In this document: positions 12,559-61,913 of the stretch, in pieces
How the letters are laid out: the number at the start of each line of letters is the position of its first letter
Position numbering within the stretch: position 1 is the stretch's first letter
NCBI GenBank assembly: GCA_951406725.2
Contig: OX597815.1
Span: 92,008,001 to 92,072,000 of the forward strand
Origin: Octopus vulgaris
Taxonomy: Eukaryota
Direction: 5' to 3'
Length of the DNA: 64,000 bases
Notes under the pieces: generated by a model
Databases searched by the model: none
Told to the model about the DNA's origin: nothing
What the model saw: only the letters and a program-made list of their open reading frames with translations
Made by a program: the position numbers and the translations under genes

Positions 12559-15500
12559 GTTGGTGCCATTCTTCTTCTACTCTAACCTTTTCTAATCTCT
12601 TCGTTATGAATAGCTTTATACACACACCCATACATACATACATACATACATACAAACGTCAACATCCATATGTATTCATGTATGTGATACATACGCACGC
12701 ACACACATACATTACATATTCACACTCATTTATTACGTGTATAAATGTATACACAATTTCGTTGATTAGCTGTCATTCATGTGCATACACTCGAAATCAG
12801 TTATATGGTGTAACTTTTCGTTATATACACAAGTAATTTTTGTTGGAAATAGATCAAATGATATCATTATATATAATATATATATATATGTGTGTGTGTG
12901 TGTATATAATACACACTCATACAGTCATTTGATGTCAAGGTTTTCTTTTTATTACATGACTATCATCAATGTGGCAAGCAACGAATGGTAACATCTGGAA
13001 ATTTGGAACCAGCGTTATATTACAGAAGTTATGTTAGGCGATCAGTAGTAGGCGGAAAGCTTTCAAGAATATTAGCCATTACCATACGAAGCCCTTTATA
13101 TACCTAAGCCCAGTATTCCTTTGTCAGATAAGCCAATAATGCTTTGAAGACTTTAAAAAAACTCTCATCTTAATTCATCAATTCTGTCTAGTGCGGCTGT
13201 TTCGTTCCATCTTCCCCTAACATGTCAGTTTCTATTTGTTTCAGTTAGTCCACTTAATTAGAAAGGAATACACACACCGACACCAATGTGAACAAAATTT
13301 CTTGCAATAAACTAGTGTTTTACGGTTATTTTATATCAATTTTTTTTTTACACATCTACTGAATATTGCGGATTGTAAACATAACCTTTAACAATGATTA
13401 ACTTATTCAAAAGTTTCTCGTTGCCATTTCTAACTTACATTTGGAACTTTGGTGTGCCGATTGGAGAATGTCCTGGTCTTTCTAAATAGTAGCAATAGGT
13501 AATTTTCCTCTGACCCATGGATTTAATTCCTTTCGACCGTCAGTGACCCTTTCTACGAATGTTTAATGCTTATTATTCAGAGGTAGATGAGTTCGATTAC
13601 CACGAAGAGTGTAGAATATAACGTTTCGGGCTTTCCGCTTCGTATGAGTGTGAGGAAAATAAAAAGTAGTTTTGTTATTTACTGTTTTCATTCCGCCTTA
13701 CATTCCAAGTTCATATTCTCCTGGGGTCGATAAAATGTAACCTCTTTGCTCTCAAAAGTCGGTTCTGTGCCCAAAGAAACAAAACAAAATAAACACATTC
13801 CTTATGTTTTGGTAACTGTACAAGGATTAAGCTTCCGATTCGGAAATATATTGTTACAACATTCCATTTTCTGTCCCTTTCAACGTCTTGGCCCTTATAC
13901 CGGAAAGACTTGGGGGTGGGGTTCAAAAGGAAGTTTTGTCCTTATACCTACATAAAAATAAAGTTGTGGTAGGTATCCTTCCTGCAGTGATGTTGAACAT
14001 TTGTAATGTAACCCTCCCTAGTTACATAAATGGCACCAATTCTTTGCATTACAATAAATTCAGTTATTTTGATTTGCGTGACTCGTATTTTTATGTTTCT
14101 ACAGGATGCATAATAAAATATTGTCTCACTCAGTAGCTCATGTTGTTTTGTCCTAGGTCAGCTCTGATCAAGAAGACTATGATCAAAGACGTTCCTCTTG
14201 TAACCACCCCATATGAGTACAACCTCTTCTTCCAGACCAAACATTATTCCAATGTTCCTTTTTTTTTTAATGTGGTTTGAGGAAGATTTGGCTGCTATTT
14301 TTTAGTTACAAAGGAGAAATTTATTTCCTATCAAATGCCACAATGGTAGACTCAGCATTTCTAGTGTTTGAATGAAATGAAAATGTTTCCCTACTACACT
14401 AGATCTTTTGCACATCAATAGAGTTTATTCTTTTCAGGTTATTCACTGTAACCAAATGTAAAGGAGGTGTGAGCATTACTGTGAAGTAGTAATAGCCCTA
14501 CAATTTTTGTCAAGTAAATATTGTAGGATAGAACAACTTCCCACAACCTATAGTGGCAGCACTGTAAAAGTGGCAAAACTCCTTGGTAATATATATGTCC
14601 AATAGTGGAACACCTGTCATGTCTACAGGAGATGTGGGTTTGAGTCTAGTGTGCAGCCATTAACTTTTTTATTCAAAATAGATTTTTTAACTGAATATTT
14701 TGCATGCTATTATTTATTATAGCTTTATGTGAGCTTCGAGATCCACTATTCCAAAAATAGAATTATATATATATTTAGTATCACTGGAATTTGGCAGATT
14801 AGGATGAGAATTAAACTGATTGGTTTTGCTATTTTTACAGCTCATCATTTTCCCTCCCAAAATAGTGAGACAAATAGTGGAAGACTACTTATTAAAATAT
14901 TAGCAAAATGGCAAGGCGTAACTAAATTCGCATGATGTTATAAAGTTGACCATTAATTATATAACCAGCAAATGTAGCTATGTAGGCAGAATGTCACAAG
15001 TAAGATTCATGCTTTTCTACTATTATACATGCTATAGTGGCTAAATCAATTCAAAATATCAATATTTTAAAAAGGTATGAATTGGTATTGCCTCAAACAA
15101 AATGCCTAACAGTATTTATACCTCTTCTGATTTTAGATCCTAACAAAGTCAGCTTTGTTTTTTGATCTCGGGTTGACATAATAAGTACCCATCAGGAACA
15201 GGGAGCAATCTTAATCACCAATGAAATTTGTGACCTTGTGCTTGTTATGTATTTTAATATACATTTGTATCTGATTCACACTGGACTTTTACATTGGCTC
15301 CAGACTTTATATTTACAGGATAGAGATAGATATTCAATCAAAATTGGTTCTCATTCTATTGATTATGGGGATAAAAGACTCAAATCAAGTCTGTAGAAGA
15401 TTGTAGAGAGATGAATGGAATGAAATACTGAAATGATTATTAGTCAAAAGCTCTGGATTTTACCATTCACCAACCTCTGTTAATAGTGTTAACTTCTGAA

Positions 15501-16340: not shown

Positions 16341-17029
16341 ATAACAGATTTGAAATATCATTTTTTTCCAGACTACAGGCTTTCTTTATAATTTCCATAT
16401 TCAAATATTATGCTCTATGAATTATTTTATATTGTAATTCCTTTCATATTAAAAACTATTGTGTATTTATCAAAAAATTATATAGTTTATATTTTACCCA
16501 AAATGTGTATTTTCTCAATGCCTTGCATTACCTCGACACATCTTGCATAATTAATTTTGGCACCACTTACTTGTTTTATGAGAGAAAGTGAAACATTCAT
16601 CACATTCACAGTGCAGCTACCATTACATAGTGTAATGAACTACACCACTCTGCAATATCTAATTCAAGTTAAGCGGACTACTGCACCATTAATAGTTAAG
16701 TATCTTGTCCACAAACACATTGCAGTTCTGGTGACTGATTACAGACATATATATATACATACACACACACATACACATTGCAAAAGGGCTCTCATATGGC
16801 TAAGAGTTGTTTTAACTCTTATTGCTAGCAATGCTGGTGCTTACTAGCACCCTCCATCATTTTAGTGACAACTGTACTTGTTGCTTATTGGTTCTAAATT
16901 GCAAATAGCCACCTTAATAATTTATAATTCTCGTTTCACCATTTTCAAAATCAGTCAATGTTTCCTATGGTGTTCTTTGTAAGGCTGACAAGGTGACTTA
17001 GGTTCTTTAACCCTCGACATTGGAGTAAT

Positions 17030-17079
17030 GAGTCACTGATGAAGATTGATTAAATCTGAAATCAACACTGATATGACTC
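17030..17079 (+). ncRNA. Type I hammerhead ribozyme (all core elements present)
   Basis: GAGTCA [stem I] CTGATGA [core] AGATT-gatta-AATCT [stem II] GAA A-TCA-acac-TGA-T [stem III] A^ TGACTC [stem I']. Cleavage triplet AUA, cut after 17073. Confidence 0.8.
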
Positions 17080-17958
17080 CATCTCACTTGTCATAGAGAG
17101 GGAGCCTGTCTCTCTTGTCAGCTGTTAGAAAAGTGCTCTCATGTGGTTACTATTGTTTTTCTGTGAGAAAAAATGCTGTTGAAATATGGGAAATTTGCTG
17201 ATTCAGGTTCAAATCTACTTTATGGCTAAATGAAGTCACTACAATATGTTTGAATAGTGAAGTAAGTAAAAGTGTATTTAATGTGTGGAACCTAAAAAAA
17301 TCAAAGGCATATTAAATATGGAGTGAGGAAAAACACTCATAGGCTACACATTTTTTCTCAATTTTCTGGTTGGCACTGGAGGCTGCTATGAACATGTTTT
17401 AGTCTTATGATCTCATCAGTGAAACATAGGATTTGCAGTATTTAATGAGGTGGTAATGGGAGAATAAGACCAAAACGTCTGAATTGTCCAAATAAGACCA
17501 AAACATGTCTGAATTGTCTCCCATATTTGCCAAACTAAGAAAAATAATATTAGTCAATGAGTAATATTAGTTTCATCTCACATAATTATTTCCAGTTAGC
17601 CTTTTGGTGCTCACTGCTTTAAATAAGCTAGCATAAACTTTTAATTCTCATTCAATTTTAGTTTCACTTTCATTAAACATACACAAAAAGATATTTATAT
17701 ATATATCAGTCGTGATTTCAATTTCTAGACCAGGTGGTGCATTGTGTTCTTGAGTAAAACACTTCCTCTCATGTTGCTCTGTGATCACTTCAATACCTGA
17801 TGCATGGTACACTGTGCACCTGTTCAGACAATGTTGATTTGATGGAAAGAGTGAACCAATGGGCAGTACAAGCATTTGATCACTATAAATAAATCATTTA
17901 TGTAGGTCATTCAGCAAAAGCTGAACACTTATACACCGTCTTCAATAGGAGAGTCCAT

Positions 17959-35349: not shown

Positions 35350-36470
35350 TGTTTTTATTATGATATTTAAAGATTTAACCAGTTTCACAGTTTACACTGC
35401 TTTTCAAAATTTTGAAATAGAGAGGCATGGCTTATATCACAGCTATTTTGCTTCTGAAGCTTGCCTTATTTTTATAAGTTCATGGCTCAAATTAGTATAT
35501 GTTTTGAATAGAGTTTGATTGGTAGAGGATAGTCAAATGACTGGTGTTAGAAATATTTGTAGGTTCCCCTGCTACGTCTGTGTGTTAGTATCAAGTGATA
35601 ATGTTTAGCATCATAAGTTAAGGCAGACACAGTTGATGGAACGAGTCTAGTGGTAGTACTAAACAATCACTGCTCTGAATGTTTTCTGTTAAGTATTTGT
35701 AGGGAATGAGCATGTGATTAAATTTAAAACCTTCTCTATATCTCCTGCTACATCTGTGCATTAGTGTCTTGTAGCAGTACATTTTGCACCTAACAGGAAG
35801 GCTGACACGGTTGAGTGAATGTATTTAGTTACAATCAAGGCACTCCACATTTAATCTGTCAGGTGAGAGAGTAGACAGGAATCATTTGTATGTCATCCAG
35901 TGGCTAAAGTTTAGGTTGTAGGTTCCTCATGTTAAGTGGCAGAATGAGCTTTGTGTGTGAATAGTTATTTGTTAAGTCTGGGTTTCATACTTTTGTATGA
36001 AAGTATTCTCTTTATCTGTGCTTCTCTGTGGTATTCACTGAACATAGGTAGAGTGGGAAGACCTGGAATTTGGGGGACATATTTTTTGCATATATGTCTA
36101 TGTGTCCACTCAGTGGAACCTGTCTAGTACTGGAGTTTCATATTTGTTGTCAGTGAATGGTCAGCCTATTTCTTAGAGTAAGCTTTGTTTGACCTATGTA
36201 ATCTTCATTACATCCTTGACATTTGATAGCATATATTAAATTCCTTGAAGCACATGTAAAGTAATGTTTTATGATAAAAATTTGTCCTGATTTGAATTTG
36301 TATGTTGTGTCTTCAATAAGATTGATGTAAGTCGCACAATTAGAGCGGCCACACTTTTTGACTGTTGGTGTAGGAGTTGTGGAAGGTAATTTAGCACCCG
36401 TGAGGAATTTTTTGAGAGACTTTGATTGTCTTTTACTTTCAATTATTTTGTGTATTTCGAATGCTTGTTT

Positions 36471-36476
<6 letters not shown>
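35350..36476 (-). mobile_element. Penelope-like element 3' part: GIY-YIG endonuclease and downstream region
   Basis: KKCGRSNCATY...FTCASRNLIYAIKCQGCNEDYIGQTKLTLRNRLTIH gives the GIY-YIG motif with the Penelope Cys linker. It continues with stops to ~35970. A decayed hammerhead and AATAAA lie at ~35352-35410. Confidence 0.85.
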
Positions 36477-36513
<37 letters not shown>

Positions 36514-37444: not shown

Positions 37445-37579
37445 GTTAGGTGGACCTGATCCTTTGGACTATATCAGTATGTATGCCAACTCTGGTGATC
37501 CAAACAGAAACATCCCTCCCCATTGGCATTACATTAGTTTTGGATTATCTGATCTCCATGGTGATGGCCGTGTGCATGA
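37445..37579 (+). CDS. SUFU: Suppressor of fused, exon 2
   Basis: ccag|G LGGPDPLDYISMYANSGDPNRNIPPHWHYISFGLSDLHGDGRVH GA|gtaagt; 135 nt. Confidence 0.96.
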
Positions 37580-37959
37580 GTAAGTAAAATTATCAAATTA
37601 CCCCTCCACTTTTTTTTTCTTTTTCCATTTTACTTCTAATTTCTCCTCAAGAATATAAGCAGGTGGGTTTAGGAAAATTTCAGTATTCTGAATATAATAA
37701 TAATAATAAGTGAGTAGATCAGTGTATTTTATTTTTTTAATAGTTTGTTGCCATTTTTAGTATTTTACCACAAAGATTAATGGGGGCTTTTGTTTCTATG
37801 GCTTTAACTGAAAAGTATTGGTTTGCAGTTCTTGCAAGAAGATTATGCAGAACGCAAGAGTTAAGCCTAAGCAACTTAAAGAAATGTCCTCATTCTCTTA
37901 CATGTCCATGACTGAATGTATCACAAAAGATTCATCTTCAGGGCCAAAAAATATTTCAG

Positions 37960-40130
37960 TCTTGAACAGCTACTAACTCTCTGTGAGATATGTTGATGTA
38001 TGCTGCATCCAAAAAGTTTGGTGGAAGGGAGCTTCAGCCAGGATCCTCACTGGTGAAAGGCATAGGTATAAATTCTTTTGTGAGGGCAACAGTGATGGGG
38101 TAGGAGGTATTGGCATACTTCTAGCTGAGAAATGGATAAACAAGGTGATTGAAGTAGTCAGAATATGTGATAGGATACTTAAGCTTAGACTAGTTTTGCA
38201 GAATTGCATAGCAACATTCATCTCTGCCTATGCCCACCCCCTCCCCAGCTGTTCAAATGAAAAAAAGGACTGTTTTTATGACACTCTTTTTCAGGTGACT
38301 TTGAAGATAAATGACAGTGATCTTATCTTTGTGGCTGGTGATTTCAATGGACATGTTGGGCAGCACCCAGGTGGCTTTCATGGAGTGCATGGGCCCCATG
38401 GAATTGGTTTCCGAAATGAGGAGGGAGCAAGGTTGCTGGAGTTCAGTGATGCAAATGACCTAATGATCTGCAACACCAACTTCAGAAAGCCAGCCAGTCA
38501 CCTGATAACCTATAAATCCAGTGACCATTCTAGCCAGATTGACTACATTCTCACCAGAAAAAGGGCTTCATGGTTGCTCTTAAATGTAAAGGCCTTCCCT
38601 AGTGAAGAATGTACCCCTCAGCAAAGATTACTCATTAGTGACTTTAAGCTACAGGCACAAAGGAACCCAAGAAGCAAACCAGTCCAGAAAAGAAAGATCT
38701 GGAAGCCTAAAGATCCTTTGAATAGTCAGGTTTAGGGACTTCCTAACTGAAGCATTTGATGAGAAGTGGGAGAAGCTACAAGCTTGCAGTATAGAGGATA
38801 ACTGGAAGTTTCTACAAGATAACTTACTGAGAGCCACAAACAAATTTGTGGGAGGTGCAAAGTTCCAACCAGACCTAGAGTGACATGGTGATAGAACAAT
38901 GTAGTTGACAGTGCCATTAGAACAAAGAAACAGACTTGGAAGGACTGGAAGTGTCGGGGTAGCAAGGAGCTGTACCAGGCAGCTAGAAGAGAAGCTAGGA
39001 AGCAGGTATACTTAGCCAGGGATGAAGCAAAAAGGAAGAAGTTTACTAATGTTCTGTAGCATGAGGACCAGTAACTTGATGCGTTTCAGTTTGCAAGACA
39101 GTGTGCCAGGGAAAATTGTGATGTTGAGAGAGAGAAGTGTATTCGCATGGATGATGGTTCACTTGTAGTTAGTGACTCTGCAAAGAAAGAGGCTTGGAAG
39201 TGCCACTATGAAAAGCTACTGAATGTAAAGAACTCATTGGAGAAGGAGAGTCTGCCTGATGTTGATCCAACAGAAGGACCAGCAATCCAAAGAGACAGTA
39301 ATGTTGTAGACAAAGCCATGAAGGATATCTTGGGGAAAGCCCCCCCCATCAGGAATAACTGCTGAGATGCTTAAAATATCTGGCAGTGTGGGTTATGATC
39401 TAGTCATCTGTATATTTAATCAGGTGGTACCTGAAGGAATCATACCCAATGACTGGTGTAGTCGCACCATAGTCAACAACTACAAAAGTAAAGGTGATGC
39501 CTTAGATAGAAGTAACTACAGAGGTATCAAATTGTTGGATCAGGTGATGAAAGTCACAGGGAGAGCCATAGCCCAACTAATTAGGGAGAGAGTCTAGATG
39601 AGATGCAGTATCAGGGAGAAGCACCACCAATGCTATATTTCTGGTAAGGCAGCTGCAGGAGTCTAAGATAAACCTCTGTACTTGGCTTTTGTTGACTTGG
39701 AGAAAGCTTTTGACAGGGTCTTCCAATCCCTTATCTGGTAGTCAATGCGTAAACTAGGGATAGACAAGTGGTTGGTGAGACCTGTACATGTGGTCTGCAA
39801 GAGAGACAACTATGCTAGTATGGTTATGTGATACATATGGATGAGGATAGCTGTGTAAAGAAGTGCCAATCTCCAACTGTGTAAAGAAGTGCCAATCTCC
39901 AAGAAGTGCCAATCTCCAACTGTGGAGGGAACCTGTGGAGGGAACCCAGGAGGGAACCCAATCTCCAACTGTGGAGGGAACCCAGGAAGACATGGGATGA
40001 GGTAGTGAAGCATGATCTTTGAATGTTGAGCCTTACGGAGGTAATGACCAGTGACCAAAACTTTTGCTTGAGAAGATCCGTCAAGCCAAGTGAAATCATA
40101 GTTGTGGCTGATGTGGATGTCACATATACA
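37960..40130 (+). mobile_element. RTE-clade LINE, decayed (APE endonuclease, partial RT, 3' end)
   Basis: VDVCCIQ, FISAYA, VAGDFNGHVG and SQIDYIL (APE); KGDALDRSNYRGIKLL and AFVDLEKAFDRV (RT). Stops, frameshifts and a large internal deletion near 39800. Confidence 0.92.
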
Positions 40131-56569: not shown

Positions 56570-57795
56570 TTAGGTTGTCACGAAAGTTCTTGCTGTTTTT
56601 AACCTTTAAATTCAGATGCACATATCTCAGCTCAAACAAAACTTTATTAATTGAAATGAACATCATCAGAATCAACACACTTTTGCCAACGTGAAACAAG
56701 TTTATTTGTGCCAGTAGAGTAAAAATCCTGCGTCCTGGTGCCGATGAAGTCGTTGAAGGTGTGTTTGGCATCGTCTTGGTTTTTGAAACATTTCTCATGC
56801 AGTAAGTTGTTGAGATGCTTGAAAAGGTGATAGTTGGTAGGCAAGAGGCCTGGTGAGTATGGTGGATGAGGCAGAGTTTCGTAGCCCAATTCATTCAGCT
56901 TCTGGAGGGTCAGTTGTGCAATGTGTGGTCCTTTTCTATTGACCAATGCTGGCTGTTATTGTCGGAATTTCTTATGCATTTCATCCACTTGCTGACAGTA
57001 CTTCCCTGCCGTAATGGTTTCGCCTGGATCCAAAATGCTGTGATGGAGGAGACTGGCCACAAACCACCAAATAGTCACCACGACCTTTTGGTGCAACTTT
57101 GGCTTTGGGAAGTGCTGTGAGCTGAGCGTCGCCAGTTGTAAAGAATCCACTTTTCATCGCAAGTCACAATCCAATCAAGAAACACGGTCGTTCTTGTTGT
57201 GTAAAAGAAGGGAAAATGAAATTTCAAAACAGCATTTTTTTTTTTGGTTGTCGTTCAATTCATGCAGCACCCATTTCGCAAGTATTTTTGTTTTTCTAAT
57301 CTCTTTCAAGTGGTTCAAAATTGTCATATACATTATGTCTAATTCAGAAGCAAGCTCTCGAACAGTTGTGTGTGGATTGACTTCCACTAAGGCTCTTATT
57401 TGATCGTTGTCAGTATCCAATGGCCGACCACTATGCTTATCATCTTCAAGACTCTCATCACCGCTATGAAACTTCTTAAACCACCATTGTGCTGTATGTT
57501 CATTAGTGGTTCCTGGGCCAAACACATTGTTGATATCGCAAGCTGTTTCAGCAGCTTTTCAGCCTAGCTTGAACTGCAATAAGGAAATTGTGCAAATTTG
57601 CTTTTTGCCCATGTTGTATTCAACGTTCCAGAAAAAATGGCCTAACTATTCATAAAGAAAAGGAGTAACACAATTAGATAGAGCAAAAAATGGGCTAAAA
57701 ATATAAAGTCAAAGTAATTTAACAAAAATTAATTTGAAAATACATCATTTAAAACCAAAATTTAAAATTCTGCAAGAACTTTCTTGACAACTTAA
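56570..57795 (-). mobile_element. Full-length dead mariner (Hsmar1/cecropia-like)
   Basis: TIRs TTAGGTTGTCACGAAAGTTCTTGC / GCAAGAACTTTCTTGACAACTTAA with TA on both sides. Motifs WVLHEL, IVTCDEKW and HPPYSPGLLPTNYHLF. The second catalytic HDNA segment is deleted, and there are stops and frameshifts. Confidence 0.92.
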
Positions 57796-60658: not shown

Positions 60659-61913
60659 TTGGATCATCCCATAAATAATGCAGTTTTTTCAATTGCATGA
60701 ACTAAAAGTTGGAGGGGGACAGGCTATACTACTTGCATCAACTTGCTATAAAAGCAGGTAGTAATTTTACCTTGTGCTTATTCTTAGTGCAAGTTTTGAA
60801 GAGTGCAGTACTATTTTGACAGTTATTTTTTCAAAGCTATAATGGAAGTGACAAAGGAGTATATTCAGCATATTTTGCTTTATGAGTTCAATAAAGGCAA
60901 CAAAGCAATGGAAAGTGCGAGGAATATTAATGCAGTATATGGGGATCAGGCAATAAGCATAAGCCAGTGAAATTCCAAGCTGGAAACTACAACCCAGAAG
61001 GTAAGCTTCATCCTGGAAGATCTGTAGAGCTCAACCAGGATGTCCTGCAAACCCTGGTGCAACAAAATCCCATTGTAACTGTCAAGGAACTAGCAGAGAA
61101 GCTTAGATTTGGTTATTCAACCATTCATTGATGCCTGTATGCCATTGGAAAAGTCAGCAAATTGGGTCAATGAGTTCCTCACCAACTTTCTGAGTCTAAT
61201 CACATGCAGAGAGTGAATGTGTGGTCTTCTTTGCTGTCATGTCTCACAAATGAACCGTTTTGGGACCAAACAGTGACTGGTGATGAGAAATGTGTTCTCT
61301 ATAAAAATATCAAGTGCCAAAGACAGTGGGTAGGAAAAGAAGAAACACTGGCACCTCAGGCTGAAGAAGGTCTTCACCCACATAGGGTGTTATTATATGT
61401 TTGGTGGGATATGAAAGGTTTAGTCCACTTTGAACTTTTAAACCCAAACCAAATGATAACAAAGGTCTATTGCAAGCAGCTTAAGTCAGCGCTAGAAAAA
61501 AACCGGCCATCTTTCGTTTCAAGATGAAAGGTGTTCTTCCATCAGGATAATGCTTGGCCACATACAGCAAGGATGACATTTCAAAGGCTGGAGCAATTTG
61601 AATGGGAAATGATACCCCACCTACCATATTCGCCAGACATTGGCCCATCTGGTAATCATTTACTCTGCAGTCTTCAAAATCATTTGGACAGAAGAAATAT
61701 GAATTCTGTAGATGAGGTCAGAACAGTTCTGGAGGAGTATTTTTTGTCATAGACAAGTGAATTTTGAAGATGGGCCTTGCAAGTCTATCAAAAGATGGAA
61801 GAACATTGTAGAAAAAGGAAAGTATATTTTCGCTTAAAAAAGAACTTTGTTTATCTTAATTTTGAAAAATAAAAGAAGTGTAAAGGAACTGCATTATTTA
61901 TGGGATGACCCAA
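60659..61913 (+). mobile_element. Full-length dead mariner
   Basis: TIRs TTGGATCATCCCATAAATAATGCAGTT / AACTGCATTATTTATGGGATGACCCAA with TA flanks. MEVTKEYIQHILLYEF, TVTGDEK, FHQDNAWPH and LPYSPDIGPS, with stops and frameshifts. Confidence 0.92.

Follow-up and report, generated by a model that had tools for sequence, protein, structure and literature searches.

We identified a type I hammerhead motif in the first intron of SUFU within a 64-kb stretch of Octopus vulgaris DNA (hereafter, the window). The motif lies in a decayed copy of a 347-bp repeat. This repeat probably represents a non-LTR retrozyme, one that Penelope-like element (PLE) machinery is likely to have spread, and its SUFU copy is likely a neutral passenger of the intron. 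We place the probability of this reading at roughly 0.8. The coordinates of the relevant features are given in Table 1.

Table 1. Features of the SUFU locus and of the hammerhead-bearing repeat copy (window coordinates).
Feature	Position	Strand	Basis or remark
SUFU first coding exon	12371..12558	+	donor GT at 12559; matches exon 1 of C24 SUFU-family gene
(TA)n/(CA)n microsatellite at 5′ junction of repeat copy	16738..16775	.	direct reading
1.1 units of 347-bp non-coding repeat	16776..17159	+	379 aligned nt, 90.5% identity to majority unit
Long imperfect rod extending stem I, hammerhead at tip	16983..17123	+	z −3.4, 0/200 shuffles
Type I hammerhead motif	17030..17079	+	direct reading and descriptor match; predicted cut after 17073 (AUA)
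Helix III, decayed family palindrome	17061..17072	+	G-to-A at 17065 and 17067
Unrelated dispersed-repeat fragment, in place of family's usual 3′ end	17146..17244	.	
SUFU second coding exon	37445..37580	+	Pfam SUFU match; acceptor AG ends 37444

The hammerhead motif and its host intron

All elements of the motif can be read directly. They comprise stem I (GAGUCA 17030–17035 and UGACUC 17074–17079, 6 bp), the CUGAUGA core (17036–17042), stem II (AGAUU 17043–17047 and AAUCU 17053–17057, 5 bp, loop GAUUA), GAA (17058–17060), stem III (AUCA 17061–17064 and UGAU 17069–17072, 4 bp, loop ACAC), and A17 at 17073, the last base of the AUA triplet. The motif contains the CUGANGA, GAAA, and UH core elements of a hammerhead and three helices, with helix I open-ended. 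The pair closing stem II is A-U rather than G10.1-C11.1, and the 6-bp stem I opens into an internal loop, where a tertiary contact with loop II may form. A strict type I descriptor (at least 5, 4, and 3 pairs in stems I, II, and III) has its sole match in the window at this position and matches 0 of 300 dinucleotide shuffles, in keeping with the sequence-only reading, which had described a complete hammerhead with every element paired. The bare core pattern is non-significant by itself (8 matches versus 5.6 expected).

A chance match to the descriptor is nonetheless conceivable. The Rfam hammerhead model, which the sequence-only reading had proposed as a check, has no match in the window at gathering score and none at E ≤ 10 in 16800–17300, and the minimum-energy fold differs from a hammerhead in that the 5′ strand of stem III is taken up by UGAU of the core. 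A match to the Rfam model is not a defining feature of hammerhead activity. The shuffles argue against coincidence, and the majority sequence of 20 related copies (described below), in which the core is intact and each stem is present, already refutes it. We consider a chance match exceedingly improbable.

Three plus-strand SUFU exons were found. The second coding exon matches Pfam SUFU (E 9.7e-8). For the first, the coding sequence, which starts at 12371, has a match in exon 1 of a second gene of the SUFU family, located on C24 (E 1.6e-5). Intron 1 spans 12559–37444 (24.9 kb, phase 2) on the same strand as the hammerhead, which lies 4.5 kb past the donor and 20.4 kb ahead of the acceptor. The exon matches and both splice sites agree with the earlier reading, which had placed the motif in a 25-kb intron 1 of SUFU, in sense orientation.

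The second SUFU-family gene (G000:C24:18420674-18453650, minus strand) is divergent; it shares the exon 1/2 boundary, and its first intron measures 27 kb. The 347-bp unit is absent from the intron 1 region of this gene (39.5 kb searched). One weak match to a relaxed descriptor in this gene (stems 4/3/1) was taken as chance. Elsewhere, the window contains a full-length U6 snRNA (3596–3702, plus strand, 118 bits) and open frames at 7100–9600, 37977–39600, 56570–57560, and 61170–61750, which resemble hAT, LINE endonuclease/RT, and mariner transposase remnants.

The 347-bp repeat family and its origin

We identified 25 exact genomic matches to a 31-nt hammerhead pattern and none to its reversed control. 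A 201-nt segment containing the motif recurs at 75–100% identity in at least 44 genomic places (40 of 282 candidates scored), and the pooled matches of several searches, which give a lower bound, place the family at 125 or more distinct places on 28 contigs. The repeat has a period of 345–347, and its 347-bp unit has 43% GC and no long ORF. The majority unit used throughout was built from 20 copies picked by their likeness to the window copy, with the window copy among them. Loop II occurs as GATTA and AATCA among family copies, variants that suggest two subfamilies.

The family is, judging from its sequence divergence, old. The closest non-self copies are 84–89% identical among the matches listed, and 36% of CpG sites are changed. 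Neither arrays above about 2.2 units nor young copies occur among the best 40 of 1888 candidates.

The structure of the copies was analyzed in 54 distinct loci, which remained of 70 once 16 duplicates had been removed. Twenty-four loci are longer than one unit and 12 include an inverted piece. The 5′ ends scatter, while 46 of 54 loci end within unit positions 1–56, including 19 at positions 49–51, a 3′-end count that is favored by 15 loci retrieved with a query close to that end. The terminal motif has 22 exact matches, of which 12 continue into the unit; 7 of the 10 that stop run into a microsatellite. On their 5′ side, longer copies continue into further sequence of the 347-bp unit rather than into an ORF or a unique 3′ UTR. 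One locus (L016) contains two hammerhead motifs 345 bp apart. The SUFU copy contains a single hammerhead and overlaps itself terminally (16776–16816 and 17115–17159).

These properties are those of non-LTR retrozymes: a non-coding unit of 150–450 bp, GC below 50%, one type I hammerhead, and a high degree of self-pairing. Folded as a circle, the majority unit is strongly self-paired (z −8.0), versus −1.75 for the window copy (60 shuffles each). The size of the unit and its 43% GC fit the non-LTR retrozymes described by Cervera and de la Pena (2020, PMC7229834). At least two consecutive hammerheads, a further retrozyme trait, are present in the family (L016) and not in the SUFU copy, which is a solo monomer. 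Moreover, 5′ truncation, partial tandems, inverted 5′ copies, and a bias towards microsatellites are traits of the kind reported for PLE insertions (bioRxiv 10.1101/2021.04.23.441226). A Penelope or retrozyme origin, as the sequence-only reading had put forward, is supported by a repeat family that has PLE insertion features.

A different origin within the same machinery has to be weighed. Since no long array and no young copy occur among the scored copies, the family could consist of pseudo-LTR (pLTR) remnants, the unit being the 3′ end of an extinct autonomous PLE; the SUFU copy would still be a passenger. PLE features that this origin would equally explain are the constant 3′ end, the loss of 5′ sequence, the inverted pieces on the 5′ side, and insertion at microsatellites; vertebrate retrozymes are reported to be related to pLTRs (bioRxiv 10.64898/2026.07.22.740005), and a young RT-encoding family of PLE type is abundant in this genome. 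Against it, longer copies enter more of the unit and not an ORF or unique 3′ UTR, and PLE ORF matches lie within 1.5 kb of only 1 of 54 loci in the copy-structure sample and 0 of 43 loci in a second sample (described below), the single case not being contiguous with the repeat. Joins of the unit to an RT and GIY-YIG ORF were likewise absent from the 1.5-kb flanks of these 54 and 43 loci in searches with one PLE protein query. The PLE fragment of that single case, near L013/L094, was rejected as a partner; microsatellites and other repeats lie between. A search for an autonomous partner found no similarity of the unit to 23 PLE loci (best E 0.68). We regard a pLTR origin as unlikely and favor a non-LTR retrozyme.

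The very young PLE-like family (L086–L093) has two ORFs, as in L087 (234–3943), where a 480-aa ORF accompanies a 776-aa RT ORF, and is represented by dozens of near-identical copies. Upstream of the first ORF, all of these loci contain a minimal hammerhead-like motif (about 150–195 in L088, plus strand). This motif, which was read by eye and is missed by the type I descriptor, combines a short palindromic helix III with a U3/A8 variant of the core; in L093 it departs from the other loci at positions 7 and 17. Covariation of U3 and A8 in hammerheads has been described (PMC3088659).

SUFU intron 1 also contains a broken fragment of a putative Penelope-like endonuclease region (36153–36512, minus strand). 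We take it to be a GIY-YIG/Penelope-like endonuclease from its motifs. It is 65% identical to the C-terminal part of the RT-encoding ORF, has at least 150 matches among 14128 candidates, and has no match in Pfam.

Helix III, monomer folding, and decay

In the family, helix III is a perfect 12-nt palindrome, AUCAGCGCUGAU. Its loop is GCGC in 19 of 48 copies and a CpG-decay form (GTGC or GCAC) in 17; ACAC occurs solely in the window copy, where it results from two G-to-A changes in the palindrome. The self-duplex of the palindrome is predicted at −19.5 kcal/mol in the family versus −2.4 in the window copy. All folding values presented here are nearest-neighbor predictions that exclude Mg2+ and tertiary contacts.

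In a lone majority unit, the hammerhead fold lies 5.8–7.9 kcal/mol above the ensemble. The unit is predicted to be locked because CUGAU of its core is paired with AUCAG, an arm of helix III. When two units are folded in tandem, a double hammerhead costs +3.7 kcal/mol, versus +21.3 for two separate hammerheads. The prediction is thus that the family ribozyme is inactive in single units and active in dimers. In this testable design, one palindrome would both lock the monomer and activate the dimer.

Tandem transcripts of the family would bring two hammerheads together, the 12-nt palindromes of which would form one 12-bp helix III. The resulting double hammerhead would cut out a unit-length RNA able to circularize, and a reverse transcriptase that copied more than one unit from such a circle or from a tandem template would yield 5′-truncated partial tandems. 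The observation that longer copies run into more of the unit is as expected for reverse transcription past one round in the model of PMC7229834. Circular RNA and mobilization by PLEs are inferred for the octopus family by analogy with this literature. With one hammerhead and no partner in the window, the SUFU copy itself cannot give a circle.

The sequence-only reading had contrasted the motif with those of Penelope elements for having a real stem III with a loop and had suggested that it could fold as a monomer. Stem III with its loop is present in the SUFU copy; what does not stand is the contrast, as the family state is the dimer-type palindrome and the loop is its decay product. Monomer folding likewise holds in part. 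The SUFU copy ranks first for predicted monomer folding among 36 core-bearing copies that have at least 4 stem II pairs and 3 stem III pairs, with its hammerhead fold 2.2–2.3 kcal/mol above the ensemble and the next copies at 3.5–8.3 kcal/mol. Even so, only 2–3% of molecules are predicted to be folded as a hammerhead at 37°C and 0.1% at 18°C. All three changes in the hammerhead of the SUFU copy favor the active fold. The two G-to-A changes abolished the palindrome and loosened the predicted lock, which makes slow monomeric cleavage possible.

Several comparisons address whether the SUFU copy has been retained or is decaying. It differs from the majority unit at 3 of 50 positions in the motif versus 33 of 329 elsewhere (p=0.45), a test of low power. 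At that power, the motif appears to lack excess conservation over the flanking repeat, that is, to show no selective retention. At about 10%, its decay is like that of other family copies. The second, unselected sample was assembled using only unit sequence beyond the motif; its 43 loci, left from 48 after removal of 5 duplicates, contain 23 hammerheads. The core is kept in 11 of the 23, one is fully intact (two under an alternative reading of L064), and core positions are 10% changed versus 12–16% nearby. In a sample enriched by the hammerhead pattern, 12 of 48 hammerheads are intact and 4.6% of core positions are changed. The full intactness of the SUFU copy, its first rank in monomer folding, and the direction of its three changes count against the passenger reading. 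An intact hammerhead is thus a 5–10% event among at least 125 places. Perfect-looking intronic hammerheads can arise by chance among hundreds of decaying copies, which we consider a warning.

Four of 24 sequencing runs were also examined. In runs labeled as two other organisms (B and C), the flanks of the insertion are about 99.8% identical (1 difference in 433 nt), and because these are nearly identical they say little about conservation. A contig of run X3 spans the motif and the 3′ junction with one difference; summed depth over the motif in this run is 55–110 times that of the unique flank, a ratio that is not a copy number. In organism D (run X16) the family is present and the unique flanks of the SUFU copy are uncovered at 85% likeness. 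Run X6, which is RNA by guess only (depth 2), includes contigs identical to the SUFU copy at 16892–17064 and 17035–17135. The latter bridges the predicted cut site; contigs of this kind show neither ends nor levels.

The sequence-only reading had further proposed a role for the motif in SUFU splicing or output. Stated as exaptation, two transitions would have unlocked a core-mimicking palindrome and so freed a dimer-locked hammerhead, and the copy would now cleave nascent intron 1 rapidly enough to reduce SUFU output or set its timing, being kept for that effect. Such co-transcriptional tuning of a Hedgehog repressor would represent an early step of ribozyme domestication. The sense-strand position, the intact core, the best predicted monomer fold, and the 20.4 kb of intron left to transcribe past the site are in line with this proposal, as is the presence of the insertion in runs labeled as two other organisms, albeit with nearly identical flanks, and intronic hammerheads of amniotes (PMC6155905) and CPEB3 (PMC10274809) are reported precedents. 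The absence of excess conservation (p=0.45) speaks against it, as do the recurrence of a non-G at the changed loop position in other copies (A in 3 of 48), a predicted active share of 2–3% or less, and a stem II closed by A-U instead of G-C. Additionally, splicing of a hammerhead-cut intron is reported to be as good as that of an intact one, slower hammerhead cuts left splicing intact, and only a fast HDV ribozyme is described as blocking splicing (PMC2995048, citing Dye 2006 and Fong 2009). The SUFU copy, one of at least 125, also came to notice because of its perfect look. We consider exaptation very unlikely. Slow cleavage of the intron is possible on the folding predictions and likely inconsequential, and an effect on SUFU splicing or output is unsupported. 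If the SUFU copy did cut in vivo and alter SUFU output, a two-base change would have made a mobile-element ribozyme a gene regulator.

Comparison with known hammerhead systems

Retrozymes of the non-LTR class have been described in molluscs, namely in mussel (PMC7229834), and 235 Rfam hammerhead hits have been noted in giant squid (PMC6962438). Searches of the literature on octopus hammerheads and Penelope elements and on cephalopod retrozymes found no description of the 347-bp family, which may be deposited in Repbase or Dfam. The family likely belongs to an ordinary retrozyme class and is itself apparently undescribed; it adds a retrozyme family from a group without one in the literature searched. 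In Xenopus, one of nine retrozyme dimers is reported to have cleaved in vitro, and over 40% of retrozyme copies lie in introns, yet fewer than expected (bioRxiv 10.64898/2026.07.22.740005).

The closest described systems are metazoan non-LTR retrozymes, above all the 350–390 bp family of Mytilus (PMC7229834). Features in common with the reported Mytilus family are a mollusc-type size (347 bp in octopus), a GC content below 45%, a single type I hammerhead in each unit, a non-coding and strongly self-paired unit, partial tandems, and co-occurrence with PLEs. The octopus family differs in being old and dispersed, with no long arrays seen among scored copies, and is likened to the Mytilus retrozymes by description.

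Newt and axolotl retrozymes and Penelope pLTRs are described as having a palindromic helix III and a tandem double hammerhead (PMC7229834, PMC4209133), the former being present and the latter predicted in octopus. Most metazoan motifs are reported to have a helix III of 1–2 bp with a palindromic loop of 2–4 nt (PMC4209133), whereas helix III of the octopus family is a 4-bp stem within a 12-nt palindrome. The newt, axolotl, and pLTR monomers fail, by these accounts, because helix III is too short; in octopus, the predicted failure stems from a palindrome that carries a repeat of CUGAU of the core, with which it pairs. Finally, amniote intronic hammerheads (RECK and others, PMC6155905) and CPEB3 (PMC10274809) resemble the SUFU motif in being single sense-strand motifs in long introns. 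Those ribozymes are described as deeply conserved and stand-alone, while the SUFU motif is part of a 10%-decayed repeat copy.
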